Positions 37,410 through 64,000 of a stretch of DNA of 64,000 bases are shown one piece after another (the first letter of the stretch is position 1; the number at the start of each line of letters is the position of its first letter). The notes below the pieces were generated by a model that worked only from the letters and a program-made list of their open reading frames with translations, had not been told where the DNA came from and did no database searches. Made by a program: the position numbers and the translations under genes. The stretch comes from Rhynchopus sp. YZ270_cl-10 (taxonomy: Eukaryota). The stretch lies in NCBI GenBank assembly GCA_964035575.1, contig OZ037837.1:1860001-1924000 (forward strand). The letters run 5' to 3'.

Positions 37410-37630
37410 GGAGCTAAGGAGCTAAGGAGCTAAGGAGCTAAGGAGCTAAGGAGCTAAGGAGCTAAGGAGCTAAGGAGCTAAGGAGCTAAGGAGCTAAGGA
37501 GCTAAGGAGCTAAGGAGCTAAGGAGCTAAGGAGCTAAGGAGCTAAGGAGCTAAGGAGCTAAGGAGCTAAGGAGCTAAGGAGCTAAGGAGCTAAGGAGCTA
37601 AGGAGCTAAGGAGCTAAGGAGCTAAGGAGC
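37410..37630. repeat. (GGAGCTAA)n microsatellite, ~27 copies
   Basis: Directly visible. Confidence 0.97.
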
Positions 37631-39580: not shown

Positions 39581-39587
39581 CTCATTC

Positions 39588-40331: not shown

Positions 40332-40368
40332 ATGTGGCTTCCAATTTTTTTTTTTTTTTTGAAAACTG

Positions 40369-44935: not shown

Positions 44936-45365
44936 CTTGCAGTCTCCACACGTCAGACCTCCGGCACACTGGGAGTTTCACAGCTTGCAGTTGGTGACAT
45001 GGAAAAAACATAGCCTTTCACCAGATGAGCTCACGACTCACGACACTGACGACGGCACTGGAGCAGAGTGGAGGGAGTCTGGTGACGCTGCTTGGGAACT
45101 GTGTATGGGTGGAATTCCCGTAAGGCGTATTGCTTTCTCTCAAATATGTGCCTGTCTTTTGAGGTTGTTTACACTTGAAAAATCATTTTACGACGGAGTT
45201 GGGCGCTGTGCGAGGAGGCTGTGCGTGACGGGGTTGTGTGTCTGTGCCAGCCTCCTGAAGGGACAACACTGCCGTCTGCACTTGAAGACGTTCTTGTGCA
45301 ACACAAGGGTTGTGACCGGGTGCTTGAGGCACAGGACAACAGGTAACACAGCAATGTGTTTTAGC
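44936..45365 (+). pseudogene. Relic of gene-1 3' region, right part
   Basis: Matches ~4503-4670 and ~4857-5035 with an internal replacement and a frameshift. Confidence 0.85.
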
Positions 45366-45951: not shown

Positions 45952-47721
45952 ATGCAATGTCTCAATGCAGTGCTGTCGATGGACGGGACACTCAGCAGCA
46001 AGGCCAGAGAGAGGCGCACCAGGTTTTTTATCTTTGCCAGTGTCTGTCTATTTGCGCTTTTGGTGAACTTTGCAGGCTCGTTTTCGATGCATATGAAGAT
46101 CCCAATCTATCTGGCTGCGACTGTGTTCTGCCTTATTGGAGTTAGCATTGCTGTTTGTGCAGTGCTGTGCAGGTTTCGGCTGAACACACATCTGGTGGTA
46201 GGTGCACTGTACTTGGTAGCGGTTGGCTTCCTGCTGCTTGACTTCGGAGGCCGTGCAATGTCGGTAACACAATGGCCGTTGCTTGTGCTCGTAATCGACA
46301 TGTTGCTTGTGATGCAGGTGCCTGCACGGTACAGCTTGGGGCTCGTCTGTTTCATAGTTCTGTGGCTTCTCCTGCTTGGTGTTGAGGAGAGCTTCAGGTT
46401 TGGTCTGTTTGACCTGCCAGTAATGCCAGCACAGGAGGGTGAGTACGGGCGACAGTATTTTCATGACATGCGTTACCACTGTGCCACTCTGCCGTGTCCA
46501 GTGACGTTTCCTTCTTCTGGCCTGATGGGATCGCTGACGGTCTTTGTCATTGACTTCATCGTGACTCGAGGCTTCGCACACGAAGTGCTGAAGGAGCAGG
46601 CATCAATGGAGCGGACGATCAACACTGTGCAGGAGATTGCCTCACTCCTGGCTTCCTACGACGTGGAGAAGGTGGCAGAGCTGCTGGAGGCACACAGAGA
46701 CGAGCTGCCTGAGGGGATGAGTGCAGCGCTGCGTGCGTTGGAGAAGAACCTGCGGTCATACAAAGCGTACCTGCCTCAGACGTGTCTGCTTGTGGGTGAA
46801 GAAGTGGCTGATGAAGGCAGCGAAGTACAGTCTGAGAGTGGACATTATACAGATGCGACTGATTCACATTGCACTTCTGAAAGTGAACATTCTGCAAGCG
46901 TGCGTTACGTTCCTCTTGGGCTGTCGTCTGTGAAGGCCACGCTACTGACGGTGCACATCAAAGACACGTTGCGTTTCTTGGATGAGGACTGTGCACTCTT
47001 CTCCTCCTTCTTCACAACCCTTCTTCTGAAGACGTTGCAAGCAACAGAGTCATACCGTGGGATGGTGGACGTGTTCGTCGGTGACAAGGTGCACTGCTCC
47101 TTCAACACGTCAAAGAGATGTGCGAACCACGCCACCTCAGCACTGCACACAGCAGCAGTGTTGATGAAGGGATTGATGCCGTCGCAGGTGAACATCGGTG
47201 TTGCATCTGGGAAGGTGCTGCGTGGTGAGATGGGATGTGACGTGATGCGCCGCTTCAGCATGGTGGGCACACTTGTGCGTGACGTGCATGGGATGGAACA
47301 TGCAGGACGTATCCTTGGCTGCGACGTGCTCTGCAACCGTATGTGCTTCAGCGATGCCGAGTGTGAACACGTGCTGCGCTTGCTTCCGTGCAAGGTGGAC
47401 GTGTCTGCAACCTGTGCGGAACATGAAGTGGTGGCTGAGCTTCTTCTGCACGACACACCTTCGGACAGTCCTGCAGAGGAATGGATGTACACCATCGGGA
47501 GGAACAGTGAGTGGGAGCACTACAACACAGCAGTGCGGAAGTACCTGAGAGGCGACGTGTCTGCTGCAGCAGTTGAAGAGGCTGCACAGGGTTGTCCTTG
47601 TTCACGGAGCCCGTTGAGCGTGCATCCCTCGACAGTGAAGGGCGGGCTTCTGAGCGTGGCCTTGGCACGACCGCTGCAGGACAATGAACGGGGTGATGCA
47701 ATTAGTTTGTTATCTACATGA
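45952..47721 (+). CDS. Multi-pass membrane protein with pseudo-cyclase domain, 589 aa
   Basis: Close paralog of 18380-20161. The last residues are altered by an indel near 47690. Confidence 0.85.
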   Translation: MQCLNAVLSMDGTLSSKARERRTRFFIFASVCLFALLVNFAGSFSMHMKIPIYLAATVFCLIGVSIAVCAVLCRFRLNTHLVVGALYLVAVGFLLLDFGGRAMSVTQWPLLVLVIDMLLVMQVPARYSLGLVCFIVLWLLLLGVEESFRFGLFDLPVMPAQEGEYGRQYFHDMRYHCATLPCPVTFPSSGLMGSLTVFVIDFIVTRGFAHEVLKEQASMERTINTVQEIASLLASYDVEKVAELLEAHRDELPEGMSAALRALEKNLRSYKAYLPQTCLLVGEEVADEGSEVQSESGHYTDATDSHCTSESEHSASVRYVPLGLSSVKATLLTVHIKDTLRFLDEDCALFSSFFTTLLLKTLQATESYRGMVDVFVGDKVHCSFNTSKRCANHATSALHTAAVLMKGLMPSQVNIGVASGKVLRGEMGCDVMRRFSMVGTLVRDVHGMEHAGRILGCDVLCNRMCFSDAECEHVLRLLPCKVDVSATCAEHEVVAELLLHDTPSDSPAEEWMYTIGRNSEWEHYNTAVRKYLRGDVSAAAVEEAAQGCPCSRSPLSVHPSTVKGGLLSVALARPLQDNERGDAISLLST

Positions 47722-47769: not shown

Positions 47770-48165
47770 TTTTAGAACGAACCTTTGTGAGGACCAGGGA
47801 ACTATGAGAAGAACCACCTTTGCGAGTCTTGCCAAACGGAATACTAGTCTTGGTGGAGGGGGTCTGGTGACGCTGCTTGGGATCCCAAAGTGTTTTTGGA
47901 TGAAAGCCCGTAAAGCCGCCAGGGGTATTGCTTTCTCTCAAATATGTGCCTGTGTTTTGAGGTTTTTTGCACTTGAAAAATATTTTTGCGTCGGAGTTGG
48001 GCGCTGTGCGAGGAGGCTGTGCGTGACGGGGTTGTGTGTCTGTACGAGCCTCCTAAAGGGACAACACTGCCGTCTGCACTTGAAGACGTTCTTGTGCAAC
48101 ACAAGGGTTGTTACCGGGTGCTTGAGGCACAGGACAACAGGGAACGCGACAATGTGTTTTAGCTA
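47770..48165 (+). pseudogene. Third relic of the gene-1 3' region
   Basis: 47988-48161 matches ~4853-5027. The upstream part is deleted or diverged and shares the GTATTGCTTTCTCTCAAATATGTGCC insert with the 45127 relic. Confidence 0.8.
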
Positions 48166-48786
48166 GCCATGTGTTCACTGTTGGCAGTTGCAGCCTTTGT
48201 GTGTATGGCCCAAAGGTGCTTCCTGATGTATTCGTGTTATATTTTCCGAAGTGGGCAAAACAATTTCTGGGTGAAAGTCAAATTTACACTAATTTCGAGT
48301 TCGGGTTATTTTCTGTTCGAGAATTATGGGGGGCGGGGGAGTTATTATTTCTAAGGCTATGACTACTTACTAGCCATGGTGACATGTGGATGATTCATAT
48401 TACCTCATCCACACACCTGCATTCTTTTCCAAGAAGTGCATATTTTTGTCTCTATTACACACACATTCTGTCTTTGGTTACTATGTGTCACCCTCCCCGC
48501 TTTCCTGGCTCAGCTGACATTGACACCTCTTTTCTTAGTCAATGCTCTGATGGTAGTCATACACTGAAGCGGACTAATTTTATTGTCTTTTGTAAAACTA
48601 CTTGTAGCATTAGCCCCCTGCATTCCGTCACCCTTTTTGTCAAAGTAATCATTTTTCTGTACAAAAACTCTCGTACAGCTCATGCTAGCGTTGTGAGGAT
48701 AACAATGCGCATACTGCCATTGTCCCTTTTGATGCAATGTCGCCATCTGTCGCTCACCACACAACCTCATGCATCCATACAGAATC

Positions 48787-51700
48787 ATGGCAGTATCTGT
48801 CCACATAATGCTGTTTCTGGCTGCATTCTGTGCAGTTGTCCTGTGTACATCCGCTGCGGCTTCTCCTCTGGCACCGATCGATCCCAGCTGCACACTGAAG
48901 ACCGTGGTTGAGTTCCATGAAGAGAGCGACTTCAACACATCGCAGCCGACCTACTTCGGGGGTGGTGTGGTCCTGCAGGCGAAGGTGAATGTAGCGGAGT
49001 TCCGATGGAACCAGACTGTGGTGATGTTCGGGAACGTGCTTGCTGCCGACATGGTGTGCTTGAGGCATGCGCAAAACGGCGGCATCTCCTTCACCTCCTC
49101 TGCCTCTGACGGTTCTGCCGCGACGATCACCTCTGGACCTGTTGGGTTGAATGAGAACCTCAGTGTGCACGTATCGATCCTCGAGAGTGGAATATGTTAT
49201 CTGTACATCAACAGCATCTTAGAGGCGGTTGGGAACTGCCCCGTCCCTGCGCTGGTGGTGCGTTGGGAGAACCGTGTGCGCGAGTCTGCCCCTGATTACG
49301 TAGCCATGAGCGGGACTGTGAGTGATTTGAAACTGAGTGCCTGTGTCGTCTTGCCGCCGCCTACAGCATACCCAGCACCGGACTGCGCACTGCAGGCTGT
49401 GGTGGGGTTTGAAGACGAGAAGGATTTCAACCAGTCGCAGCCGCTGTACTTCGGGGGTGGGGTGGTGATGGAGGCTGATATCGAGATCATCGTTGAAGCG
49501 TCTGAGGATCAGCCAATAATTCCCATTTTTACGTTTGGCGATTGGATAGGGCAGGGTCTGCGGTACGACGTTTCGCTGAAGCAGACGCTCACCTCGCTGC
49601 AGTTTTCTCACGGAAGCGACACTGTGAGGGCACCTAAGCCGCTGAGTCCCAGCACATCGCACCGGGTGTACATCACGATGATGCCACTGACCCCCGATAC
49701 CACCACTGCGATGTGCTTTATATTCGTCGATGGTGTGCTTGAGGCCCAAGGCATTTCTCCCGTCCCAGGCATGTTGGTGCGCTGGCAGAACCGTATTGGG
49801 CAGTCTTTCTCGCGCAACGATCCGAATATGGACGGCAGTGTGAGGAACTTCAAGCTGAGTGCCTGCAACGTGTTGCCAGCACCAACAGAACAGGAGGCAC
49901 CGACGTGCACTCTGTCCACTGCAGTGGCGTTTCAAAACGAGAATGAGTTTAACGAGTCGCAGCCGACCTACTTCGGGGGTGGGGTTGTGATCGAGGCGAA
50001 GGTGACGTTGACAGAGTACGTAGATGGGTCCAACATCTTCAGCTTTGGGATGTGCGGGGAGGCGGTGGAGTGCCCTGTGAGCCTGAGCCAGCATCTCGAG
50101 GGCCTCTCGTTCACGACTCAAACAGGAGGTCCGATAGTTACGCCGTTGCCGTTCGGGCTGAACGTGGAGCGGCATGTGTACATCGCCGTGGTTCCTTCTG
50201 GCCAATCTGCGACGTGCTACATCTACATCGATGGAGTGAAGCAGACGCAGGGTACGTGCGATGCTCCGTACCTGATGGTGCGCTATCTGAACCGCATTGG
50301 GAAGTCGCGTTCCACTGCGCTGGATATGAAAGGGGAAGTCAGGGATTTCCAGCTGCGTGCCTGCAACGTGCTGCCAGCACCAACGAACTACCCGTCGCCG
50401 AACTGCGCACTGCAGACTGTTGCGGAGTTTACGGATGAGAGTGAGTTCAACCAGTCGCAGGCGACGTACTTTGGGGGTGGGATTGTGGTGGAGGCAACGG
50501 TGGCGGTCTTGGAGGAGACAGACGGCGCCCCCGTGTTTGGGTTCAGCAACGGAATAGGGGTGGAGGCGGTGATGCTGAGGTCGAGCGGGCGTGGCAGGCT
50601 TGCGTTCACGTCGACACCTCAGACCATCACAGCTGCACGCGAGGTTGGTGTGGGTGTGGAGCACCGTGTGTACGTTTCCATTGTTCCGATCCAAGGAAGC
50701 GTGGAGAGTTGGTGCTATCTCTACGTCGACGGGCTGCCAGAGATGCAGGGCAGATGCCAGGTTCCGCCGCTTGCAATACGTTGGGAGAATAAAATTGCGA
50801 AGGGTAACAACTTGCCCAACTGGAACGGGACAGTCGGGAACTTCAAAATGAGCGCATGCGACGTGCTTCCGGCGCCAACGCAGTTCCCAACACCGAACTG
50901 CACACTGCACGACGTGGTGGAGCTGCTGGGGGAGAGTGAGTTCGATCCGTTCCAGGCGACGTACTTCGGGGGTGGGGTTGTGATCGAGGCGAAGGTGACC
51001 CTCACAGAGTACGCGCTCTACTCAATGGTGTTTGGCTTCAACAATGCTTTGTCCACCGCTGCAATGGTCCTGAGTCAGAGCGGGTCAGGGCTGCTCTCGC
51101 TCATGTCCACATCCCAAGCTCAGCCGCTCAGATCCTTCCGACCCTTCGGGCTGAATGTGGAGCGCACTGTGCACATTGTCAGTGTCCCTAGCATCGACAG
51201 CTCAACGGCCACCTGCTTTATCTACATTGACGGCCTAATGGAAGCCCAGGGCGAATGCCCAGTGACACCAGTGCTGGAGCGAAGGGACAACCACATTGGG
51301 CAAATGTCAGAGCAGGTGAAAGACTTCAAGGTGCGTGCATGCCATGTCTTGACACCTTCGCACTTCCCCGAGCCGACGTGCACCCTCTCCACTGCAGTGG
51401 CGTTTCAAAACGAGAGTGAGTTCAACCAGTCGCAGACTACTGACTTCGGGGGTGGGATGGTGATAGAGGCGAAGGTGCTGTTCACGGAGTACGCGGAAGG
51501 GACGCAACCTGTGTTCAGCTTCAGCAACGGCCACTGGGATGCAGTGTCCTTGAGACAAGAGGGCGAGGGTGGGGGCCTCGTCTTCATCAGTGGCCCTGGC
51601 TATTCTTTCTACGTTCCTGGGCCGTTCGGACTGAATGTGGAGCGCAGTGTGTTCATTTCGATGGTTCCAAACCTGCCCGACAGCACGCAAGGCACGTGTT

Positions 51701-54700
51701 TCATTTATCTCGACGGAGTTCTCCAGGGACAAGGGGTATGCCCAGTGCCACAGGTCATGGCACGCTACACAAGCCGGGTTGGCATCGATGATTTCGGAAC
51801 CCTGCACGGCAACGTGAGTGAGTTCAAGCTGAGTGCCTGCAACGTGTTGCCAGCACCGAGTCAGTACCCCCCTCTGAACTGTGCAGCGCAGACTGTGGTG
51901 GAGTTCCAGTCAGAGAATGAGTTCAACGAGTCGCAGGCGACGTACTTCGGGGGTGGGATTGCGATCGAGGCAAAGGTGACGCTGACGTCGTACTCAGACT
52001 CTGCACCCATCTTCCTATCCTGCACAGGGGCGGAGAAAATGTGCATCCAGCTGAAGCAGAGCGATACTTCTCCCGGGCATTTGACCCTCGAAACCTTCTC
52101 CTCCACTGACCTGTCCAAAACAGTCACAAGCTTGATCCCACTTGGACGGAATGTCGAGCGCAGTGTGCACATCGCAGTCCAGCCGCTGGCCCCTTACAGC
52201 ACTGATGCCACATGCTTTATCTTCATCGACGGGGTGTACAACGTCAAGGGGGAGTGCTACGTGCCCCCTTTGGTGCTGCGCAGACACAATCTCATCGCAA
52301 AGTCCCTCACCCCCAGGGTGCACGCGGGGGTGAATGTGAGGAAGTTCAGCCTCCGAGCGTGCACAGTGCTAGAGGCACCGACACAGTACCCCGCACCGGC
52401 CTGCAGCCTCTCCACGGTGCTGGAGTTTAAGGAAGAGAGCGAGTACAACCAGTCCCAGTTCACGTACTTCGGGGGCGAGGTCGTGATTGAAGCGAACGTG
52501 ACACTCACATCCTACACAAGCGATGCTGACATATTGCTTGTGGGCAACATAGACGGATCCATGGTCATGTCACTTACGGTGACCTCGGGGTCGAAGCTGG
52601 CCTTCACCACACCGGACAAGAACGGCTGGGCGAGCTCCGTAGTGTCGTCGACGAGTTTTGGTGTGGGTGTGGAGCGGTACGTCTACGTGTCTGCGCAGGT
52701 GTCCGACGACGGTACCTCGTCCTTTTGCTATCTTTACATCGACGGCGTGCTTCACGCCGTAAAGGAGTGCACCCTTCCTGCTTCCGGTATTAGGTGGCGT
52801 AACTTCATCGGAAGAGACATCGAGGGTCGGGCCAACCTTCCCGGTACTGTGCGTGACTTCAAGCTGAATGGCTGCCACGTCAAGACACCACCTACAGCGT
52901 ACCCAGCACCGGACTGCGAACTTAAGACTGTGGTGGAGTTCGTAGACCTGAGTCAGTACAACCAGTCGCAGGCGACGTACTTCGGGGGCGGGATCGAGGT
53001 GGAGCTGAAGCTGCGCCTCACAGAGTACGTGGATTCTGCGGACGTGTTTTTCTTCGGAAACGTTGTCGGGGGCTACCGGACAAAGGAGTCCTCAGTGCTG
53101 ACTGTGCAATCAGGGCTGCTCACTTTCTTTCCCCCTGGTGACAATAGCGGCGGGATGAAAGCATTGCACCGACTTGAACTGAACGTGGAATACAACATCC
53201 GTATGGCTGTTGCACTTTACGCTGGTTGTGTACTATTCATTGACGGGGAGCTGCAGGCACTTCTCGACTCCTGGGTGTACGTGAGCAACCCTGTGCTGAA
53301 CTGGCAGAATTATATTGGCCGGGGTATAAACGGCACTGTGAGAGATTTCAAATTGGCTGCCTGCAAGCAATCTGTGCTGCCAGCACCATCACTGCTCCCG
53401 GCTCCGAACTGCACACTGCACACTGCGGTTCAGTTTACGGAAAAGAGCGACTACAACAGAACGCAGATGACCCAATTCGGGGGTGGGCTTGTCATCAGGG
53501 CGAAGGTGATGGTGAGACAGTACCTGTCTTCGTCTATCATGCAGTTCAGCACGTACTATGGGTACAACGAGATGGGCCTGAAACTGGGTTATGATGGCAG
53601 GATCTCGTTGATAACCTCCCAAACGTACTACTCAGGCGCAGAGAGTGACCCGTCCATCATCACCACTACTGACCCCATAGGGCTAAACGTCGAGCGGTCA
53701 ATCTACGTTACCATAGCCACAGATGGCGACGGAGCTCACTACGGGGGGGGAAGGTGCTACATCTATGTGGATGATGTCTTGCAGGCCCAAGGGGGCTGCC
53801 TTGCCCCGCTGCTGGTGGTTCGGCAAGAGGAAATTGTTGCACCTCTGCGCGGTACAGTGCGGGACTACAAACTGTCTTCATGCGTTGTCTTGCGAGCGCC
53901 GACGCAGTTCCCAGGGAACTGCTCACTGAAAACTGTGGTGGAGTTCAAGGAGCAGAGCGACTTCAACACATCGCAGGCGACCTACTTCGGGGGTGGGGTG
54001 TCCATCGACCTAAAGCTGAAGGTCTTCGGCACGGAAAACTATCGGTCCTCTGTGTTTCAGTTTGGGAACTACGGGGAGGACGACAGCATCGCTCTTGTAC
54101 TCATACCAAGCCGCAATCCTCCCAAGGCGAACATGATCACCCCAGGCGATCATGGTCACGGGACTGACGCTGATGTTTTCATTGGGACGGATGTGGAGCG
54201 CAGCATTCACCTCTCCATCATCCCCACGTACTACGACGCGGAAGGGAACACAAACGCCACATGCTACTTCTTCGTGGATGGGATACTCCAGTACAGGTAT
54301 AAGTGCAATTTTCCGGCGCTGGATGTCCGGTGGCTGAGCCTCATCGGAAGGGCACCGGATGACAAGAAGCAGAACCTCAATGGGACTGTGAGGGACTTCA
54401 CGCTGCGTGCATGCGACGTGCTGCCAGCACCAACGCAGTTCCCGTCGCCGAACTGCACACTGCAGACTGTGGTTGAGGTGAGCGACGAGAGTGCTTTCAA
54501 CAGGTCGCAGGCGACGTACTTTGGGGGTGGTATTACGATTGAGGCAAAGGTGCTGTTTACGTCGTACACAGAGCGGGAGATGTCCGTGTTCCGGTTCTGC
54601 GATAGCTCTACGCGTGAATGCGTGTCTCTGGTGCAGTATGGGGAAGGGTTGCTCCGCTTCACAAGCGGCCAGAGCACGATGACGACTAAGAGTGCGTTCG

Positions 54701-57700
54701 GGTTGAACAAACAGCGCACCGTGCACATTGTGATCATACCCTCGACTACGTACCGTGGGACGGCCTACTTGTTCATCGACGGGGTGATTGCAACAGATAT
54801 TGATGATTCTTTCGTGTACCCTCCCTTGAAGCTTCGCAGGCAGAGCAGCGTTGGCGCATCCTATATTTCGCATGTGAGTGACTTCAAGCTGAGTGCGTGC
54901 ACCGTGCTGCCAGCACCGACGCAATATCCAACACCGAACTGCACGCTGCAGACTGTGGTGGAGTTCCAAAACGACACTGAGTACAACCAGTCGCAGGCGT
55001 TGTACTTCGGGGGTGGGCTGGTGATTGAGGCGAAGGTGACAGTACGTGGTTACTTTCAGATCTTCACCTTTGGTAATGGGGTGCACGACAGTTTGAATTT
55101 AAGCCTCACATCGCGCGGGAAGCTGTCCCTGACCTATAAGTACTATACTGCCACGTCCTCATTGACCATAGTGCAGTACAGGGAGTACCGCGTCCACATC
55201 GTTATCGAGCGTGAGGGGCATTGCTATTTCTACATTGACGACGTCTTGCAGGTGGAGGAGTCGTTCCCCAAGCAGGTAGCGTTCGTGGGGTGGCTGAACC
55301 ACGTTGGGGAGCCTGCAACGCACCCCAACCAGGTGCGTGACTTCAAGCTGCTTGCGTGTGAAGTGTATCCCCCGCCTACGTCATACCCAGTGTCAAACTG
55401 CACACTGCAGACTTTCCTGGAGTTCCAGAACCCGAATGAGTTCAACCAGTCGCAGGCGACGCACTTCGGGGGTGGGCTCGAAGTGGAGTTGAAGGTGACG
55501 ATCACAGAGTACACAGACACGGCGCAGCAGGTCTTCAGCTTTGCGAACGGGGACGAGGGAGAACAAGACTCCGTATCGCTGGAGGTGGGGCCTTCGGGGA
55601 AGCTGTCATTTGCTGTTGTGAACAGCGACTATCCATCTGGGGTGGTTGTCACAAAAACAGCGTCACTCAACACTTCGGTGCCGTTCGGACTGAACGTCGA
55701 GCGCAGTGTGTACATCTCTATTGTCCCGACACCAGAAAGCATGTACAAGAAAGCGTTTGCGTTTCTCCATATTGACGGCGTGGTAGCGGCGCAATTTGCG
55801 GACTTCGTGATCCCGCAGACGTTGGTGCGCTGGCAGAACCACATTGGGCTGCAAACCGGCTCCTCTGCTTTCCACGGCACCGTCAGGGACTTCAAGGTGC
55901 GTGCATGCGAGGCTACCCCAGCACCGACAGCTCCAGTGCCAGACTGTTGGATGCAGACTGTGGTAGCATTCCAGAACGCAACCTCGTTTGACCCGTCGGG
56001 CTTTCACTTTGGGGGTGGCTTTGTGGTCGAAGCTAAGGTGACCATACCACAGTACACGTCTTCAACAGATGTGTTCAACTTTGGCAATTATGGCAGCACA
56101 GGTGTGAGGCTCACCAGCAACGCAGCTGGGAGGCTCTCGCTGTCTGTCGCCCACGAAAACGGGGTTGAGTATTGCACGACCTCGCAGCCATTTGGGCTGG
56201 ATGTGGAACGCACCGTGTACATCGCAGTTGCCCCGGGAACGCGGGAGGATAACGGCATGTGTTTCATCTACATAGACAACGTGCTTCAGGTGCAGCAGCT
56301 CAACTTCCCAACACCGCTTGTTCAAATCTACCGGGTAAATAGAATAGGCGACCGCCCCGTGTTCCCCAACATCCCAGTCACGGTGCGTGACTTCCGTCTG
56401 CGTGCGTGTACTGTTCTAGGACCTCCAGGACTCCCTGCACCCACCTGCCAGCGATCCGTTGTGGTGGCATTCAAAGACGAGAGCGAGTACAACCAGTCGC
56501 AGGCGACGTACTTCGGGGGTGGTTCGCCTGCGGGCAGCAGCATTGCGGTGGAGGGTGGGGTTGTGATTGAGGCGAAGTTAATGATCACAGAGTACACAGT
56601 CGGGGCGCAGGTGTTCACTTTCGGCAACGGTAAATACGACATGCTGAAACTGGAGGTGGCCGGGCCTTCGGGGCAGCTGTCGTTCCGGCTTGCGACCCCC
56701 TACCCTTACAACACCTACCACATGCAAACCACGTCACAATTTGGGCTGAACGTGGAGCGCCGTGTGTACATCTCTATTGTCCGCAACGATGACGACACGA
56801 GGTGGCAGTGCTTCCTCTTCATCGACGGCGTGCTCGAGGTGCAAGAGGAATATTGTCAGTGCCCTGCTGCGAACACTCGCTGGCAGAACTACATTGGGGA
56901 GTCCATCCCTGGGGGAAAGCCCAACTTACTCGGCACTATTAAGGACTTCGCTCTGAGTGCATGCGAGGTCCTGCCCGCATCAAGACAGCTCGCATCACCC
57001 CGCTGCTACGGAGAGAGTGACGTACTGCAGTTTGCAAACACCAGTATGTTCGACGGATCGCGACCCATGGTCTTCGGTGGCGGGATCACAATTGAGGCGG
57101 ACATTACCTTCTCCGAGTACACGACCGTCAGCTCTCCCGTGATTTCGTTCACCACCAGCGCAGCTTCGGATGCTGTCACTCTGTCCCAAAGCGGACCATC
57201 AGGGCAGCTTATCTTCACAACGTACGGAGAGGGGGCAAACCCAACGACAATTCAAACACCTAAGCCCTTCGGGCTGAACGTGAAGCGGCGTGTGCACATA
57301 TCTGTTCTGGACGAACCCTTTGTCTATGCGGGGAGCAGGGTGTACTGCTTCATCTACATTGACGGTGTGCTGGAGGCGCAAGAGCCCGTTATCGTCCCTC
57401 GTGTGGCTACACGTTGGCAGAACGCTGTTGCACCCGAAGGGGGCCCGCTGTTGTTGGAGAACTTCAAGCTGAGTGCCTGCGACGTTGTGCTTCCTGCAAC
57501 GAAGTACCCTGTGCCCTCTTGTATCCTGAAGACTGTGGTGGATGCGAAGACGCAGAGTGTATCGCCGTTCAACTACACAAACTTTGGGGGTCAGTTTGTG
57601 GCGGTGGCAAACGTGAGCGTCACGGAATATGTCGACAACGCGATCATATTTTACTTTGGCCTCAACAACAGATTGACCTTGTCCATGACACAGGTCGGCC

Positions 57701-60700
57701 TCCTTAACTTGGTCTACGACAACTGGCATCATGTGTTAACGACGGCCACGCCGTTTGGCTTGAACGTGCAACGCAGCATCCACGTCTCCATGGTGGCGTA
57801 TGGTGCATACGACCTGAGTGTCAACGTTTCCATCTACATAGACGGCGTTTTGGAGGCGCTCAGCACGACTCTAAAATCCCCTTCCGTGTACCTCCCGGAG
57901 TACGTTTTCCGCCACATCAACAGCATCGGTGTGGGTGTGGAAGGGTTCCATGACCTGCCAGGTACCGTGCACAACTTCTCGCTGCACGCATGCGAGGCTC
58001 AGCCACCGCCGCAGTACCCAACCTGCCCGCTTCACACCGTGTTGGAGTTCCACGGCGACAACACCTTCAATCAGTCGCAGACGACGTACTTCGGTGGGGA
58101 GGTCCTCGTGGAAATGAACCTGACCGTCACGCAGTACACATATGGGGCAACTGTGTTTATATTTTCAAACGGGCCCTTTCAAGACCGTCTTCAGCTGTCC
58201 CTAAATGAAACTGGCTACCTGGAGCTCCGAGTATATGGTCCGTCCACTAAGAACCCTAATACGGAGGGGGTAGTCGTCGCCACAAAGCCGCTCGGGCTGC
58301 ACGCGGTGCGCAATGTGATGATATCAACTACGGGCTCGGTTTGTTACATTTACGTAGACCACACCGTTGTGGGGGTGGGCACCTGTGAAATGCCACCATT
58401 CATGGTGCGCTGGTTGAACCGCGTTGGCACGTACCCAGAGTGCATCAGCTGCGCACTGCAGGGCACTGTGCATGACTTTAGATTGAGTGCATGCGATGCG
58501 TTGCCAGCACCTACGCCAGTCACAACACCGAGCTGTGAACTAACTACGGTGGTGTCGTGCCCGAGCGAGAACGACTTCAACAAGACGGAGGCATTCTACT
58601 TCGGTGGTGGTGTTGTGGTTGAGGCCTATCTTTCCATCGCTGTGTACAAGAAGTACACGAAGCCTACTATATTCGTGTTCGGAAACGGGGATGGGTTTTC
58701 CACCGATAGTCTGAAGCTCATCTTGGATAGCGACGGCGTGGTGCACCCAGTGATCGCAGAGCAATATGGCGCTGATTTCAGTTTGTTAAGACCCTTCGGG
58801 CTGAACGTGGCGAGGGCTGTAAAGCTTTCCATTGTCCCGACGACGAACGACACTGCCAGGTTTTTCTTTTATGTGGACGGAATCTTACACTCACAAGGAC
58901 CCTGCCTCGTCCCGCCTTTCTCTCTCCGAAGGCTGAACCGCATTGGGGACCGCAGTGGCACTGTGAGCAACTTCGTCATGCAAGCATGCCATGTAGCACC
59001 TTCGCCTGACACAAAACCGAGCTGTGCACAAAAGAATGTGGTGTCCTTCCAGGACGAGAACGACTTCAACAAGACGGAGGCACGCTACTTCGGGGGTGGT
59101 GTTGAGGTTGAGGCCTTGCTTTCCATCGCTTCGTACAAGAGTGAAGCTGTTGTGTTCGTGTTCGGAAACGGCGATGTGGTTCCCGCCGATACACTGGAGC
59201 TCATCATTCGTACCGATGGCGTGCTGTACCCAGTGATTGCGGGCATTTCTCAATACGGCGCTGAGGTCAGTTCGTATCAACCCTTTGGGCAACACGTGGC
59301 GAAGACTGTGAAGCTTTCCATTGTCCCGATAACGGACGACACTGCCAAGTTTTTCTTAGTAGTGGACGGAGTCTTACAAGCAACAGGGCCCTGCCCCGTG
59401 CCTCCTCTCTCTCTCCGAAGGCTGAACCGCATTGGGGAGTCTGTGACGCCAGGCATCTCCAACCTTGATGGCTCTGTAAGCAACTTCCTCATGCAAGCCT
59501 GCGAGACGCCGCTGGTACCCATCAGCTACCTACCGGCCCCGTCTTGCAGCCTCCACACCGTTGTGGAGTTCAATGAAGAGAGCGAGTTCAACAAATCGCA
59601 GGCGACCTACTTCGGGGGCGGTGTTGTAATCGAAGCAAAGGTGACCATTTCAGCTGAATACCAACCAAATGCTGCCGTTTTTATTTTCGGCAACTGGATG
59701 AGTAATAATTACGGCGATCTCCTTCTCGTTCAGTCGGCTACAAACCCGGGGACGCTCACTTTTGGCAAAATGCGTTCGGAAGTGTTTGGGTTGGACACTG
59801 AGAGGGACGTCTACATATCCATGGTGGCGGGGGTGTGCTATCTTGCTGTCGACGGCGCCTTGCAAGCGGAAATAAGCTGCATTCTCCCAGAGCTGTCGGT
59901 ACGCTGGCAGTCCTATGTTAGTGGGGTGCGAAGCTTGAAGTTGCGTGCCTGCGAAGTGCTGCCAGCACCGACGCAGCTACCCGGTCCAGACTGCGCGCTG
60001 CAGACAGTGATGGAGTTCACAGACGAGAGTGAGCTGAACCAGTACAAAACATTTCCGACGTACTTCGGGGGTGGTTTTGTCTTGGAGGTGACGGCAACAC
60101 TCAAGTCATATCCCGAAGACTACTACCCCAAGAGGTGTGTGTTTGACCTCGCGAGCCCGATTTCCTCCGATTCTGGTGAGGATCAGCTGGAGTGGATACA
60201 GATGTGTGTCGGGCTGGATGGTTTCCCGTTCATCTCTGCCGGGAGTTCGTATGGGGGCAAATCATCACAGGCAGAACCCACTCAGGCATTTGTGAAAGAC
60301 GTACCGCACCTTGTGCACGTCTCCTCCTTCGGTGGGTGGTGCTACCTGTACATCGACACAGTGTTTCACGGATCAGTGCGTTGCGGTGGAGAGACGAGTC
60401 TGCGGTGGAACAACCGCATTGGGAGTACCGTAGGGAACCACTCTGCATGGAACGGTACCATAAGTGACTTCAAGCTGAGTGCATGCAACGTGCATCCCGT
60501 GCCCCACAGACCCGAGCCAGACTGCGCACTCCAGACCGTAGTTGAGTTTGCGGACCAGAGCGAGCTCAATACCTCGCAGCCCACTTTCTTCGGGGGCGAC
60601 GGGCTCACCGTGGAGTTGAAGGTGACCGTGCCCGACCTAGCCAGTCTTAATTATGTGTTTTCATTTCAAAACTGCGGAAAGGGAATGTACAGCTGCGGCA

Positions 60701-63700
60701 TAGCCCTCACGTACGACTACAGCCACTTAAACTTCATGGGCGCTGGGCTGGGCAACAGGTACTTCGACTACTCCTATAACTATTTACCCTTTCAGCAAAA
60801 CGTGGAGCACCATGTGTACGCGTCTATTGTTGGTGGTAAAAGCTATATATTTGTTGATGGCATACTCCAGAACCAACATGGGACAACTAATTACGTTTCC
60901 ACAGCCCTTATTCGGGCTGAAACGATGATGTTACCAAACGGCGGCACTGTGCGAGACTTCAAACTGAAGGCCTGCGACGTCAGGACCCCACCGCCTATGG
61001 CCTACCCTGCCCCGACCTGCGATCTGAAGACCGTGATTGAGTTTGCAGACATCAGTGAGTACAACCATTCTGCCACTTACTTCGGTGGCGGCGTCGTTCT
61101 CGAAGCAACAGTGAACACCACTATGTACAACACAACGCTTTCCGCCATCTTTCAGTTCACGAATCTGGACGAAAAAGAACCGGATGCTTTCCTACTGCTT
61201 TTCGACAGCAGTTACGACAGCGGTTTGCCGTGGCACTTCCAATCCGGGAGCCAAAGGGCCAATTCGGGTAGTTACTATACCAGCACAGTCTTAAGTCAGG
61301 ACGTCTTCACCCCCTACTTGGAGCATAAGGTGCGCATCTCGGTTGTGCCTGACACCCCTGGCAGCTGGAGGGGGATGGTATACTTATTCATCGACGGAGT
61401 GCTCATAATTCAACGTTTGGCCTACACGCCTGCTCTGATGGTTCGAGTCATTTCCAGGATCGGTGAGGCCTTAGATGCAGGCCCAGACCTTCGAGGCACT
61501 GTGAAGGACTTCAAGCTGAGTGCATGCGACGTGTTGCCAGCACCAACGTATGTTTCGCCTACCTGCGCGCTGAAGCCTGTGCTGTCCTTCGCAAACCAGG
61601 ATGAATACGACCAATCGACGTTGACGAGCTTTGGTGGCGCAGTTGTGCTGGACACCAAGGTCAAGATCACAGAGTTCTCCGACAACGCAACGCTGTTTTA
61701 TTTCGGTGCACTGGACAACACTAACATTCTCTCGCTGACGTTAACCGGAACCTCTGGGGTTGCGATTTTTATGGGGAGAAAGACGAGACCTTTGAAACTA
61801 AACACAGAGATGCATCTTCACTTAGCCATTGTTCCGGACCCGGATGTGTCCTCCTCTGCCTCATGTGTACTGTACGTAGATGGCGTGGCGGAGGTTCAGA
61901 TGACATGCGGGCTCCCACAAACGCTGCAGAGAAATTTCAACCACATAGGCACGTCAGCACCCCCTAACCCCGACCTAAAGGGAGTGTTCACGGACTTCAC
62001 GCTGCAAGCGTGTAACGTGCGTACACCGTCACAGTTCCCGACCCCGGCCTGCACACTGCGGACTGTGGTGGAGTTCACAACCCTGAGTCAGTACAACCAG
62101 TCGCGGGCGACGTACTTCGGGGGTGGGGTTGTGATTGAGGCGAAGGTGATGTTCACAGAGTACACAGACGGGGCGGAGGTGTTCAGCTTCAGCAACATCG
62201 GGAATTCAGATGTGTCGCTGGTGATGGGGGCGACAGGGATCCTAACGTTGCATTTTACGTTCATGGTCGACACGTACTCCTATTCGCTGACGTTCTCAAA
62301 ACCATTCGGGCTGTATGTGGAGCGCAGTGTGTACATCTCCTTTGTCCCTCTTTCTAAGAGGGTTTACGTTCTCATCGATGGCGTGTTTGAAGAAGAGGAA
62401 AGCTGTTACAAGGTGTCTGGACTTGAGTTCACCACACGTTGGGTCAACCACGTTGGACTAGCTCGTACAGGGATACCTCAAATGAAAGGAACTGTTCGGG
62501 ACTTCCGTCTGCGCGCCTGCCAATCAGCGCCGCCACCAACACAACGGTTCCCTGAGCCTCCCTGCGCTCTGCAGACAGTGGTGGAATTCCAGGACGAGAG
62601 TGATTTCAACGAGTCGCAGGCGACGTACTTCGGCGGTGAGTATGCGGTCGAGATGAAGGTGATGCTCAAAAGTTACACAGACTATGCAACAGTGTTTGCC
62701 TTCAGCAACAATTATAAACCCATGACACAAGCAGACGGCACCAGCATCGACATGTTTGGGATAGCACAGTTCAAAGAGGGTAAGTTGTATTTGTACATCG
62801 GCCATTCTAGTCTCGGCTTTCCTATGCCTATTGAGTTGAATGTGGAATACACTCTCTACATTGCGGCAGTTAAAGAGACGATCCAGAAGTGGAACTTTTT
62901 CACCCGCACCTACTTATATCTCAACGGCGTTTTAGTTTACGGCGCCGCAGGGTCGGGGGGGGCACCCCCTCCTTTGATGGTGCGATGGAGCAGCAAGGTG
63001 GGGGAACGGTGGGGGTCGGTGCGGCAAATGAACGGGACTCTGAGGGACTTCAAGCTGCGTGCGTGCAATGTGCTGCCAGCACCAACACAGTTGCCCGAGC
63101 CAAACTGCACCCTGCAGACCGCGTTAGCATTCCAAGACCCTGCTGAGTACAACCCCATACACCCCACCTACTTCGGGGGTGGGCTTGTCGTAGACCTAAA
63201 ACTGACGCTCCGAGACTACAAAGAGTTTACGTATATTTTCCTCCTCAGCCCAGACCCTGATCCCACGACAAATGACTTATACTTTCTCAATAAAGTTCTT
63301 CGACTCCATCTGGATGAAACGCTCTATTTGGGTCAGGAGGGTCGCGAAGGTGGAATGGACCTGAACGCTGAGATCAACTCGTGGCCACAGATGGAGCTCA
63401 ACGTCGAGTACAAGCTGCACATAGCCATGATTCCGGGTGACCGTGAAGGATATGGTCAATGTCTTATTTTCATTGATGGTGTGCTCGCCACGTCGGTGTA
63501 CAAAATATGCCCCATCCTGACGTTGAAGAAACGGGTGAAGAACGTTTTCGGGACGACGCCGTTCGAGTCGGCGATGCACCCTGACAGATACGGCCTGAAT
63601 GGGACTATGAGGGATTTCAACCTGCGTGCATGTTCCGCTGTGCAGACGCCAACGAGCTTCCCTGAACCAAACTGTACCCTCCACACAGTCGTGGAGTTGA

Positions 63701-64000
63701 ATGCAGAGTTAAATGAGGACCTAAAAGCTCTGTACTTTGGGGGCGGGATTGTGGTGGAGGCGAATGTGACCATCACAGAGTACACAGACGGGGCGCCGCT
63801 CTTTAGGTTCAGCAACACACCTGATGCAGATGCTGTGTCGCTGACGCAGAGTGGAACCTCGGGGATGGTGGTCCTCACAGTGAGTGGCAGTGGCACCCTC
63901 TCCGTTGGCCAGTTGCTGACGGAGCCCATCGGAGTGAATGTGGAGCACAGTCTGTACTTCTCAATATTGCCCACCGTTAACAGCAGCACCGGCACATGCT
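48787..64000 (+). CDS. Giant secreted/surface protein (>5070 aa, 3' end beyond window) of ~30 tandem ~170-aa LamG/concanavalin-A-like domains
   Basis: ATG 48787 gives signal-peptide-like MAVSVHIMLFLAAFCAVVLCTSAAA. The frame is still open at the window end (..SILPTVNSSTGTC), and none of the ORF-track + ORFs here is in this frame, consistent with no stop. An (Y)FGG motif recurs 30 times from 48952 to 63733 (~510-bp spacing). Unit consensus C.L.TVVEF..ESEFNQSQATYFGGG.VIEAKV...F.F.N...FGLNVER.V.I......C.LYIDG.L....C......R..N.IG......G.V.DFKL.AC.VLPAPT. Confidence 0.92.
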   Translation, partial: MAVSVHIMLFLAAFCAVVLCTSAAASPLAPIDPSCTLKTVVEFHEESDFNTSQPTYFGGGVVLQAKVNVAEFRWNQTVVMFGNVLAADMVCLRHAQNGGISFTSSASDGSAATITSGPVGLNENLSVHVSILESGICYLYINSILEAVGNCPVPALVVRWENRVRESAPDYVAMSGTVSDLKLSACVVLPPPTAYPAPDCALQAVVGFEDEKDFNQSQPLYFGGGVVMEADIEIIVEASEDQPIIPIFTFGDWIGQGLRYDVSLKQTLTSLQFSHGSDTVRAPKPLSPSTSHRVYITMMPLTPDTTTAMCFIFVDGVLEAQGISPVPGMLVRWQNRIGQSFSRNDPNMDGSVRNFKLSACNVLPAPTEQEAPTCTLSTAVAFQNENEFNESQPTYFGGGVVIEAKVTLTEYVDGSNIFSFGMCGEAVECPVSLSQHLEGLSFTTQTGGPIVTPLPFGLNVERHVYIAVVPSGQSATCYIYIDGVKQTQGTCDAPYLMVRYLNRIGKSRSTALDMKGEVRDFQLRACNVLPAPTNYPSPNCALQTVAEFTDESEFNQSQATYFGGGIVVEATVAVLEETDGAPVFGFSNGIGVEAVMLRSSGRGRLAFTSTPQTITAAREVGVGVEHRVYVSIVPIQGSVESWCYLYVDGLPEMQGRCQVPPLAIRWENKIAKGNNLPNWNGTVGNFKMSACDVLPAPTQFPTPNCTLHDVVELLGESEFDPFQATYFGGGVVIEAKVTLTEYALYSMVFGFNNALSTAAMVLSQSGSGLLSLMSTSQAQPLRSFRPFGLNVERTVHIVSVPSIDSSTATCFIYIDGLMEAQGECPVTPVLERRDNHIGQMSEQVKDFKVRACHVLTPSHFPEPTCTLSTAVAFQNESEFNQSQTTDFGGGMVIEAKVLFTEYAEGTQPVFSFSNGHWDAVSLRQEGEGGGLVFISGPGYSFYVPGPFGLNVERSVFISMVPNLPDSTQGTCFIYLDGVLQGQGVCPVPQVMARYTSRVGIDDFGTLHGNVSEFKLSACNVLPAPSQYPPLNCAAQTVVEFQSENEFNESQATYFGGGIAIEAKVTLTSYSDSAPIFLSCTGAEKMCIQLKQSDTSPGHLTLETFSSTDLSKTVTSLIPLGRNVERSVHIAVQPLAPYSTDATCFIFIDGVYNVKGECYVPPLVLRRHNLIAKSLTPRVHAGVNVRKFSLRACTVLEAPTQYPAPACSLSTVLEFKEESEYNQSQFTYFGGEVVIEANVTLTSYTSDADILLVGNIDGSMVMSLTVTSGSKLAFTTPDKNGWASSVVSSTSFGVGVERYVYVSAQVSDDGTSSFCYLYIDGVLHAVKECTLPASGIRWRNFIGRDIEGRANLPGTVRDFKLNGCHVKTPPTAYPAPDCELKTVVEFVDLSQYNQSQATYFGGGIEVELKLRLTEYVDSADVFFFGNVVGGYRTKESSVLTVQSGLLTFFPPGDNSGGMKALHRLELNVEYNIRMAVALYAGCVLFIDGELQALLDSWVYVSNPVLNWQNYIGRGINGTVRDFKLAACKQSVLPAPSLLPAPNCTLHTAVQFTEKSDYNRTQMTQFGGGLVIRAKVMVRQYLSSSIMQFSTYYGYNEMGLKLGYDGRISLITSQTYYSGAESDPSIITTTDPIGLNVERSIYVTIATDGDGAHYGGGRCYIYVDDVLQAQGGCLAPLLVVRQEEIVAPLRGTVRDYKLSSCVVLRAPTQFPGNCSLKTVVEFKEQSDFNTSQATYFGGGVSIDLKLKVFGTENYRSSVFQFGNYGEDDSIALVLIPSRNPPKANMITPGDHGHGTDADVFIGTDVERSIHLSIIPTYYDAEGNTNATCYFFVDGILQYRYKCNFPALDVRWLSLIGRAPDDKKQNLNGTVRDFTLRACDVLPAPTQFPSPNCTLQTVVEVSDESAFNRSQATYFGGGITIEAKVLFTSYTEREMSVFRFCDSSTRECVSLVQYGEGLLRFTSGQSTMTTKSAFGLNKQRTVHIVIIPSTTYRGTAYLFIDGVIATDIDDSFVYPPLKLRRQSSVGASYISHVSDFKLSACTVLPAPTQYPTPNCTLQTVVEFQNDTEYNQSQALYFGGGLVIEAKVTVRGYFQIFTFGNGVHDSLNLSLTSRGKLSLTYKYYTATSSLTIVQYREYRVHIVIEREGHCYFYIDDVLQVEESFPKQVAFVGWLNHVGEPATHPNQVRDFKLLACEVYPPPTSYPVSNCTLQTFLEFQNPNEFNQSQATHFGGGLEVELKVTITEYTDTAQQVFSFANGDEGEQDSVSLEVGPSGKLSFAVVNSDYPSGVVVTKTASLNTSVPFGLNVERSVYISIVPTPESMYKKAFAFLHIDGVVAAQFADFVIPQTLVRWQNHIGLQTGSSAFHGTVRDFKVRACEATPAPTAPVPDCWMQTVVAFQNATSFDPSGFHFGGGFVVEAKVTIPQYTSSTDVFNFGNYGSTGVRLTSNAAGRLSLSVAHENGVEYCTTSQPFGLDVERTVYIAVAPGTREDNGMCFIYIDNVLQVQQLNFPTPLVQIYRVNRIGDRPVFPNIPVTVRDFRLRACTVLGPPGLPAPTCQRSVVVAFKDESEYNQSQATYFGGGSPAGSSIAVEGGVVIEAKLMITEYTVGAQVFTFGNGKYDMLKLEVAGPSGQLSFRLATPYPYNTYHMQTTSQFGLNVERRVYISIVRNDDDTRWQCFLFIDGVLEVQEEYCQCPAANTRWQNYIGESIPGGKPNLLGTIKDFALSACEVLPASRQLASPRCYGESDVLQFANTSMFDGSRPMVFGGGITIEADITFSEYTTVSSPVISFTTSAASDAVTLSQSGPSGQLIFTTYGEGANPTTIQTPKPFGLNVKRRVHISVLDEPFVYAGSRVYCFIYIDGVLEAQEPVIVPRVATRWQNAVAPEGGPLLLENFKLSACDVVLPATKYPVPSCILKTVVDAKTQSVSPFNYTNFGGQFVAVANVSVTEYVDNAIIFYFGLNNRLTLSMTQVGLLNLVYDNWHHVLTTATPFGLNVQRSIHVSMVAYGAYDLSVNVSIYIDGVLEALSTTLKSPSVYLPEYVFRHINSIGVGVEGFHDLPGTVHNFSLHACEAQPPPQYPTCPLHTVLEFHGDNTFNQSQTTYFGGEVLVEMNLTVTQYTYGATVFIFSNGPFQDRLQLSLNETGYLELRVYGPSTKNPNTEGVVVATKPLGLHAVRNVMISTTGSVCYIYVDHTVVGVGTCEMPPFMVRWLNRVGTYPECISCALQGTVHDFRLSACDALPAPTPVTTPSCELTTVVSCPSENDFNKTEAFYFGGGVVVEAYLSIAVYKKYTKPTIFVFGNGDGFSTDSLKLILDSDGVVHPVIAEQYGADFSLLRPFGLNVARAVKLSIVPTTNDTARFFFYVDGILHSQGPCLVPPFSLRRLNRIGDRSGTVSNFVMQACHVAPSPDTKPSCAQKNVVSFQDENDFNKTEARYFGGGVEVEALLSIASYKSEAVVFVFGNGDVVPADTLELIIRTDGVLYPVIAGISQYGAEVSSYQPFGQHVAKTVKLSIVPITDDTAKFFLVVDGVLQATGPCPVPPLSLRRLNRIGESVTPGISNLDGSVSNFLMQACETPLVPISYLPAPSCSLHTVVEFNEESEFNKSQATYFGGGVVIEAKVTISAEYQPNAAVFIFGNWMSNNYGDLLLVQSATNPGTLTFGKMRSEVFGLDTERDVYISMVAGVCYLAVDGALQAEISCILPELSVRWQSYVSGVRSLKLRACEVLPAPTQLPGPDCALQTVMEFTDESELNQYKTFPTYFGGGFVLEVTATLKSYPEDYYPKRCVFDLASPISSDSGEDQLEWIQMCVGLDGFPFISAGSSYGGKSSQAEPTQAFVKDVPHLVHVSSFGGWCYLYIDTVFHGSVRCGGETSLRWNNRIGSTVGNHSAWNGTISDFKLSACNVHPVPHRPEPDCALQTVVEFADQSELNTSQPTFFGGDGLTVELKVTVPDLASLNYVFSFQNCGKGMYSCGIALTYDYSHLNFMGAGLGNRYFDYSYNYLPFQQNVEHHVYASIVGGKSYIFVDGILQNQHGTTNYVSTALIRAETMMLPNGGTVRDFKLKACDVRTPPPMAYPAPTCDLKTVIEFADISEYNHSATYFGGGVVLEATVNTTMYNTTLSAIFQFTNLDEKEPDAFLLLFDSSYDSGLPWHFQSGSQRANSGSYYTSTVLSQDVFTPYLEHKVRISVVPDTPGSWRGMVYLFIDGVLIIQRLAYTPALMVRVISRIGEALDAGPDLRGTVKDFKLSACDVLPAPTYVSPTCALKPVLSFANQDEYDQSTLTSFGGAVVLDTKVKITEFSDNATLFYFGALDNTNILSLTLTGTSGVAIFMGRKTRPLKLNTEMHLHLAIVPDPDVSSSASCVLYVDGVAEVQMTCGLPQTLQRNFNHIGTSAPPNPDLKGVFTDFTLQACNVRTPSQFPTPACTLRTVVEFTTLSQYNQSRATYFGGGVVIEAKVMFTEYTDGAEVFSFSNIGNSDVSLVMGATGILTLHFTFMVDTYSYSLTFSKPFGLYVERSVYISFVPLSKRVYVLIDGVFEEEESCYKVSGLEFTTRWVNHVGLARTGIPQMKGTVRDFRLRACQSAPPPTQRFPEPPCALQTVVEFQDESDFNESQATYFGGEYAVEMKVMLKSYTDYATVFAFSNNYKPMTQADGTSIDMFGIAQFKEGKLYLYIGHSSLGFPMPIELNVEYTLYIAAVKETIQKWNFFTRTYLYLNGVLVYGAAGSGGAPPPLMVRWSSKVGERWGSVRQMNGTLRDFKLRACNVLPAPTQLPEPNCTLQTALAFQDPAEYNPIHPTYFGGGLVVDLKLTLRDYKEFTYIFLLSPDPDPTTNDLYFLNKVLRLHLDETLYLGQEGREGGMDLNAEINSWPQMELNVEYKLHIAMIPGDREGYGQCLIFIDGVLATSVYKICPILTLKKRVKNVFGTTPFESAMHPDRYGLNGTMRDFNLRACSAVQTPTSFPEPNCTLHTVVELNAELNEDLKALYFGGGIVVEANVTITEYTDGAPLFRFSNTPDADAVSLTQSGTSGMVVLTVSGSGTLSVGQLLTEPIGVNVEHSLYFSILPTVNSSTGTC

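Follow-up and report, generated by a model that had tools for sequence, protein, structure and literature searches.

A giant array protein of 31 LamG/ConA-like modules, predicted to be a type I membrane glycoprotein and a candidate multivalent adhesin

The locus and its genes

The window, by which we mean the whole stretch of 64,000 nucleotides that was analysed, ends in one very long gene encoding an array of LamG-like modules. We call the LamG-array protein of the ORF at 48787..64000 (+) the giant; its complete copy in the sequence database is P0001. The features of this gene within the window are as follows.

48781..48782, + strand: putative AG acceptor for spliced-leader trans-splicing, from the start of a contig of run X3
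48787..64000, + strand: ORF of the giant, intron-free, from exact translation, the ORF listing and the database copy P0001
48787..48861, + strand: predicted signal peptide of about 25 aa, ending in AAA, from the hydropathy peak, with the cleavage site placed by eye
48889..63672, + strand: modules 1-29, predicted LamG/ConA-like beta-sandwich units, from the invariant first and last Cys and the Pro-rich linkers
58506..59438, + strand: modules 20 and 21, the youngest internal duplication (80% nucleotide match, 62% aa identity)
63673..64000, + strand: start of module 30 (109 aa), truncated where the window stops, from unit alignment

No further LamG module is found in positions 1-48700 of the window. 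This part carries four intron-free multi-TM genes on the + strand (2817-5027, 15062-16828, 18380-20161 and 45952-47721), which have a common N-terminal half with 78-81% identity. The gene at 2817-5027 has a Guanylate_cyc domain; in the remaining three the C-terminal half is of another kind and has no Pfam match. The genes are possibly degenerate receptor cyclases. The family to which they belong is huge, with 398 matches at E<=1e-10 and contigs whose depths add up to some 200 times the depth of the LamG gene, and the gene fragments lying between the intact copies (16997-17586, 22124-22198, 44924-45361 and 47986-48159) would fit a birth-and-death turnover of tandem copies. A gene at 23140-26265 (+) encodes a ubiquitin C-terminal hydrolase (UCH, E 2e-44); the protein has Ala-Pro and Pro-Gln-Gln repeats, and its long N-terminal half is unannotated. 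Microsatellites of 8-9 nt at 1455-1872, 11513-13045, 14146-14782 and 37354-37630 give rise to spurious ORFs of up to 539 aa, and tandem arrays with units of 54 nt (5571-6708), 35 nt (39580-40332), 75 nt (31968-32265) and 321 nt (36312-37045) are also present. Rfam and tRNA searches of the window gave no matches.

Exact translation confirms the uninterrupted frame of more than 15 kb that had been claimed in an earlier note on this DNA, since frame +1 runs without a stop from 48733 to 64000. From the ATG at 48787 the ORF covers 5,071 aa within the window and is open at its 3' end; the full giant has 5,732 aa from this ATG, and P0001, which begins at the ATG at 48769, has 5,738 aa. The same note held that the ORF track had missed the gene. 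It was indeed hidden from the track because the frame runs past the window end, but it is listed once open ends are allowed, and a gene caller already had it as P0001.

Along 48782-64000 the pieces listed for contigs of runs X1, X2 and X3 show 0 differences from the window and 0 gaps, the gene being spanned by no single piece, and depth along the gene is even in X1 and X2. Run X6 (share 0.07) contributes only short low-depth pieces and run X7 nothing, and both were left unused. Two apparent contig joints, 55044-56740 and 64000-50391, were considered as splicing and rejected, as the contig part past the window matches other modules in all three covering runs. Humps of depth in runs X4 and X5 were likewise rejected as copy number, as GATC letters at the joints suggest proximity-ligation libraries.

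A contig of run X3 starts at 48782, the G of the AG, and has 23 foreign letters ahead of it, while runs X1, X4 and X5 extend upstream of this point, to 48421-48424. Together with the shared G, the foreign letters agree at 23 positions with the last 24 letters of the euglenozoan spliced leader printed as 'Euglenozoa 14' in PMC3795323. Thus, a feature of euglenozoan nuclear genes, a spliced leader joined to an AG upstream of the ATG, is present in one X3 contig. The leader is one letter off the closest published euglenozoan spliced leader, near the 3' end, and this difference may help place the host. The mRNA would resume at 48783, leaving a 4-nt 5' UTR before the ATG at 48787. On the basis of this one contig of one run, we infer that X3 is RNA and that the gene is trans-spliced and intron-free with its start at 48787; transcription of the gene is likely, because this contig carries a euglenozoan spliced leader joined to the AG ahead of the ATG.

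These data bear directly on whether the giant might be an assembly artefact, a pseudogene or an untranscribed frame. Such a suspicion could draw on the fact that none of the listed runs is recorded as RNA and that the leader junction comes from a single contig, but it is largely refuted already and we give it hardly any weight. A stop-free 15 kb stands against 119-302 stops in each of the remaining five frames past 45000, the contigs are identical letter for letter, the leader is joined exactly at the AG 4 nt before the ATG, the scaffold of the modules evolves at an omega of 0.2-0.5, and members of the family are present in a Rhynchopus transcriptome assembly.

Architecture and predicted fold

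Only two hydropathy peaks above 1.9 occur in the giant, one of 2.55 at the N-terminus, in agreement with the signal peptide proposed earlier, and one of 2.67 at a TM helix. Only 10 residues separate the predicted signal peptide from module 1. Within the window lie 29 complete modules and part of a 30th, and the complete protein has 31 of about 170 aa each, so that the earlier estimate of some 30 units in a protein of more than 5,000 aa is borne out. Past the window end, unit 30 is completed and followed by unit 31, by a Pro/Thr repeat and a pair of 4-Cys mini-repeats that match 0 Pfam families, by a mucin-like stalk of about 260 residues (63% Ser/Thr/Pro), and by one TM helix and a short acidic tail of 34 aa ending in LDLLE. 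The extension beyond the window, where an anchor or a catalytic tail had been looked for, thus reveals an anchor and no recognizable catalytic domain: there is no catalytic Pfam domain in residues 1-5000, and the remainder consists of modules, mini-repeats, stalk, TM helix and tail. From this sequence plan the giant is predicted to be a type I membrane glycoprotein.

The earlier proposal of a LamG/ConA jelly-roll is supported by profile and model. Residues 1-5000 match Pfam Laminin_G_3 (PF13385) with 108.4 bits against a cut-off of 27.6 (E 4.7e-31), and 7 of 29 single units match it at E<=1, the best at 3.2e-6. An AlphaFold2 model of unit 3, built on an alignment of the 29 units, is all-beta with 10 strands (pLDDT 92.3, pTM 0.87), which is the beta-sandwich expected of a single unit. 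One unit and one pair were modelled, and the remaining modules were assigned by alignment. The best structural match of the unit 3 model is AbnA domain 4 (PDB 5HON; Z 14.4, rmsd 2.4, 144 residues aligned), followed by CBM40s (Z 13.5-14.1) and pentraxins (Z 13-13.8), these three being tied within about 1 Z, and then by LG domains of neurexin, agrin and laminin (Z 11.6-12.7). Foldseek and VIA matches are dominated by the LamG/ConA beta-sandwich fold, and ESM Atlas matches are generic Laminin_G_3 clusters only. Sequence identity to the AbnA domain 4 and CBM40 structures is only 9-12%; in a PDB sequence search the module profile found only 4QVS, at E 0.077, and P0007, a relative with low module number, found nothing. 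By profile and predicted fold, the giant is a member of the LamG/ConA superfamily. A two-unit model (pLDDT 89.3, pTM 0.77) has a confidently predicted linker, which suggests that neighbouring modules would be packed in a defined geometry.

The 29 whole units share a mean pairwise identity of 35% (22-62%) and vary in length from 149 to 189 aa. In all 31 units, FGG and the two flanking Cys are unchanged. The sequons noticed earlier before YFGGG are a real excess: the ectodomain carries 62 N-glycosylation sequons against 35.0 +/- 5.3 in 500 shuffles, and 26 of the 31 units have one directly before YFGGG. The linkers are short (mean 12.7 aa, range 10-15), rich in Pro (29%) and without Cys. The earlier note had read the linker and its neighbours as a hinge closed by two Cys. 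A Pro-rich linker flanked by Cys is indeed present, but pairing of these two Cys with each other is improbable, because the single-module relatives P0022, P0059, P0063, P0088 and P0100 also have one Cys on either side of the module and because such pairing would leave an unpaired Cys in the first unit of the giant and another in the last. It is likely instead that a disulfide between the first and last Cys closes each domain, and a 13-residue linker follows. A second Cys pair covaries weakly (both present in 17 units, neither in 6, a single one in 8; p=0.038).

Relatives of the giant

An HMMER search of 1.84 billion representatives with the module profile found 749 proteins at E<=0.001, and the best 150 of these matches were taken for family analysis. 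A word-based search for long relatives (2,789-8,875 aa; 1,249 scored candidates) returned P0001 only, and a search of 7,991 candidates (332-2,000 aa) with the module profile gave none; this was a false blank, because HMMER over all representatives found the 749. Domains covering more than 100 profile positions were sorted into the 31 of the giant, an inner set of 51 near full-length, Cys-flanked domains from 25 proteins, and 109 outside domains (>=25 bits). In the inner set the module occurs with astacin+EGF+WSC, CAP, PA14, an LVIVD propeller, a receptor kinase and multi-TM parts, and it also forms pure arrays in P0004 (6 modules), P0005 (7), P0006 (4) and P0009 (2). Among the other 149 matches listed, no protein has more than 13 matched stretches, as against 31 in the giant; this comparison concerns those matches and is no survey of all LamG proteins. 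In a FastTree tree of all 82 inner domains and a random 30 of the 109 outside domains, a single clade with a support of 0.96 unites the giant with the arrays, and the units of the giant alone group at only 0.61. A bacterial origin of the module was considered and could not be established, the diplonemid-type group having a support of 0.44 and most outside matches carrying no taxon.

Four of 20 hit clusters that were looked up are transcripts of Rhynchopus euleeides, and two others are labelled 'hypothetical protein'. The giant gene likely comes from a diplonemid; the choice of a diplonemid over another euglenozoan rests on these relatives named Rhynchopus euleeides. Other domain combinations in the family are of separate interest. 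P0080, a candidate receptor kinase, carries the LamG module followed by a TM helix and then by a pair of protein kinase domains, and P0020, P0022, P0088, P0121 and P0128 combine a LamG module with a Pro/Thr stalk and a multi-pass TM region without a Pfam name, a plan resembling that of adhesion receptors.

P0001, P0004, P0005 and P0006 have a common plan of stalk, TM helix and short tail. The cation-independent mannose-6-phosphate receptor, with 15 domains, and cubilin/megalin are multi-ligand endocytic receptors, and by analogy the giant might act at the flagellar pocket or cytopharynx to take in diverse food molecules. The type I topology and the short acidic tail would suit such a role, and of the endocytic tail motifs [DE]xxxL[LI] and YxxPhi, the former occurs in canonical form in the tails of P0004 and P0005 and the latter in P0005. 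The tail of the giant itself, however, has neither canonical motif, only 2 of 7 tails tested have one, and a long mucin stalk would fit projection better than recycling. An endocytic receptor is therefore an improbable reading of the giant.

Divergence of the modules

The subgroup of Laminin_G_3 to which the modules belong carries a signature, R-x-x-D-F-G-N-G..D-N / S-x-W-x-x-D, which we followed at R43, D46, N57 and S134 (unit-3 numbering). At least 3 of these 4 positions are kept in 81/109 outside domains and in 24/32 non-array diplonemid-type modules, the signature having been chosen from these same outside sets, whereas 0/31 modules of the giant and 0/19 modules of the array paralogs keep them. 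The largest gains of entropy in the giant are at positions 46, 50, 134, 43 and 57. Faces and rims were labelled from the order of strands given by DSSP and the general topology of LamG domains, without coordinates and after the entropies had been seen. By these post hoc labels, the outward columns of the giant assigned to the concave face have 3.31 bits of entropy against 2.08 on the convex face (p=1e-4).

A codon mixture model of 29 units and 148 columns points the same way, with an omega of 0.20-0.24 in the core, 0.40-0.49 on the convex face and 1.04-1.38 on the concave face. Because the concave face has an omega of 1.0-1.4 while core, convex face, N-segment and linker all lie within 0.2-0.5, the scaffold appears to be maintained while one face changes. 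A test for omega>1 gave an LRT of 1.7 under the better-fitting F61 model, a value reached by 3/25 null simulations, and 7.9 under F3x4, so that positive selection is not shown; a coarse test with 2dL 17.2 is not claimed, since it fell to 1.7-7.9 on a finer grid. For modules 20 and 21 dN/dS is about 1 overall on 25 synonymous changes, which are too few to decide.

The composition of the changing face appears unlike that of an aromatic sugar cleft. By the same coordinate-free labels, nine assigned-concave columns of the giant contain 32% Ser/Thr, 0% Trp, 4.6% Tyr and 1.8% Phe, as against 10.3% Tyr in outside domains. Nor does the giant show any rim asymmetry (2.40 vs 2.63 bits, p=0.32). Its younger paralogs differ in this respect: in the 12 modules of P0004, P0006 and P0009, which are not independent of each other, hypervariable sites are concentrated on one rim (16/33 vs 1/29, p=5e-5), and this rim is richer in Tyr (8.4% vs 3.1%). 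The differences between P0006 and P0153 are scattered.

These patterns have to be weighed against a serious rival, already present in the earlier note as a coat filament and retained here as a spacer or coat rod, according to which binding was lost and the modules would be glycosylated, disulfide-locked beads of a semi-rigid filament, serving as glycocalyx, steric shield or stalk, with an unconstrained face left to drift. The loss of the signature from every module, an omega of the variable face near 1 and not clearly above it, a face rich in Ser/Thr and poor in aromatic residues, two equally variable rims, the conserved sequon and the predicted defined geometry of the pair would all suit a rod. 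Drift over the whole surface, however, would not focus change on one Tyr-richer rim, as it is focused in the younger paralogs of the same clade, and the outermost module also lacks the signature, so that there is no obvious ligand domain at the tip for a rod to project. On balance we consider an inert spacer less likely than an adhesin. The sequence of the giant alone cannot separate the two, and support for binding comes mainly from the younger paralogs.

The junctions between modules have a history of their own. At conserved residues, excess synonymous identity among units is 0.33 in the junction boxes (31 columns) and 0.06 in mid-domain (21 columns; p=0.003). Of 19 exact matches of 24-38 nt between units, 17 begin in the N-terminal box, and they often join units far apart in the chain, for example 5/27, 7/28 and 11/22. 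The pattern suggests gene conversion at the junction, or unequal crossover there. Because the junctions are homogenised, the omega of the cores would be overestimated and its true value may be <1. A pure spacer would have no need of homogenised junctions with distinct cores between them. On the other hand, a conserved frame with a hypervariable face and recombination at the junctions is the pattern that would be expected of arms races, and the giant could be a self/non-self or defence molecule, acting in kin recognition or mating, or as a decoy or shifting target against viruses, parasites and grazers. Against this stand the lack of demonstrated positive selection and the fact that no allelic variation was seen within the giant gene in the runs compared, which may all come from one strain, and we regard a recognition or defence role as quite improbable.

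Discussion

An important question is how the giant relates to known proteins with the same fold. AbnA domain 4 and the CBM40s share the predicted beta-sandwich of its modules, and AbnA domain 4 is described as binding arabino-oligomers in a Trp-rich concave cleft (PMC9110388). In the giant, by contrast, the concave face, in columns assigned without coordinates, appears not to be lined with aromatic residues, each module is closed by a predicted terminal disulfide, no catalytic partner domain (GH or sialidase) is seen, and 31 copies lie in one chain. Large exported proteins of bacteria and archaea such as P0008, P0010 and P0011, with 11-12 Laminin_G_3 stretches, resemble the giant as long tandem LamG chains. 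The giant differs from them as a predicted type I glycoprotein of a eukaryote that has sequons, Cys pairs and a mucin stalk; their matched stretches are fewer, and most of the outside LamG domains keep the signature that the giant has lost.

Among animal LG/LNS membrane proteins, alpha-neurexin has a signal peptide, tandem LG domains, an O-glycosylated stalk, one TM helix and a short tail, which is the plan of the giant, and the folds match with Z 12.6. However, the giant has 31 domains instead of 6 and no EGF spacers, its linkers being without Cys and no EGF Pfam match being found, and its predicted pair geometry differs from that of laminin LG4-5 and neurexin pairs (TM about 0.3, rmsd 15-20 A). 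The likeness to alpha-neurexin is likely convergent. Neurexin/LNS domains have a calcium site at the variable rim; our literature search for such an LNS calcium site found nothing. The gp85/trans-sialidases of Trypanosoma cruzi provide a euglenozoan surface LamG domain that matches the module in fold and is used in binding other cells (PMC4580646). These proteins carry one LamG per chain behind a sialidase domain and are encoded by hundreds of genes, whereas the giant has many modules per chain, no sialidase Pfam match and almost no room ahead of module 1. A further likeness is to the diplonemid-type single or low-copy modules (P0007, P0012, P0059 and P0063 from Rhynchopus euleeides, and other ENA proteins), which match the module over its full length with both Cys; most of these, however, keep the signature and are fused to other domains, and the giant belongs to a derived signature-less array clade.

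The giant would work like a multivalent LamG adhesin but, by the features tested, does not appear to be a CBM, a neurexin or a trans-sialidase. Multi-LamG surface proteins are already known in animals and are common in bacteria; what is new is a eukaryotic type I form with 31 modules, a diplonemid-type family of Cys-flanked modules and an array clade that lacks the signature. We found no literature description of a LamG surface-array family in diplonemids, although supplements of other papers may mention it. The main text of PMC10161547 gives 0 matches for laminin, concanavalin or lectin, and its supplement includes one small ConA-like and one small LamG orthogroup as diplonemid gains, without comment.

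We favor, with a probability of about 45%, the reading that the giant is a multivalent adhesin or capture array of many specificities for the surfaces of prey or substrate. Of the earlier proposal of a lectin or adhesin, the fold, the signal peptide, the glycosylation and a surface location are supported. Its many different binding surfaces are plausible only, for the signature is lost, the face is rich in Ser/Thr and not aromatic, and positive selection is not demonstrated. In the adhesin reading, the chain of 31 LamG/ConA modules would be displayed above the mucin-like stalk of a surface-anchored protein. At about 0.3 nm per residue over 31 x 13-residue Pro-rich linkers, the projected chain may reach roughly 110-125 nm plus the stalk, and it would be long, glycosylated and semi-rigid. 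An ancestral common binding site would have been lost, followed by module-by-module divergence of that face, while the array would have grown and been reshuffled by recombination at the conserved NQSQ-x-TYFGGG junction box. Weak contacts of single modules could then add up by avidity on heterogeneous prey or substrate surfaces. With a different exposed face on each module, the giant would likely let the cell grip many kinds of surface.

What such a protein implies for diplonemids depends on which reading holds. If the modules are inert, the giant would be a very long glycocalyx rod, which is unusual but less important. The array clade also offers a clean natural case in which a lectin-fold domain, on being multiplied into arrays, lost the signature of its family. 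Diplonemids are described as being among the most abundant marine microeukaryotes with a disputed feeding mode, and for D. papillatum a diverse range of live eukaryotes has been proposed as prey (PMC10161547). The type I arrays, whose scaffold is fixed and whose faces vary, are named candidates for recognition of prey or substrate that can be tested module by module. We also speculate, doubtful as this wider idea is, that disulfide-closed LamG arrays of 2-31 modules form a variable-receptor repertoire of diplonemids, in which the ancestral site gave way to antibody-like hypervariable loops and recombination at the junction box copied and reshuffled modules. If this were true, the giant would be its extreme member, with up to 31 specificities on one molecule, which may serve diplonemids in choosing prey, hosts or partners.
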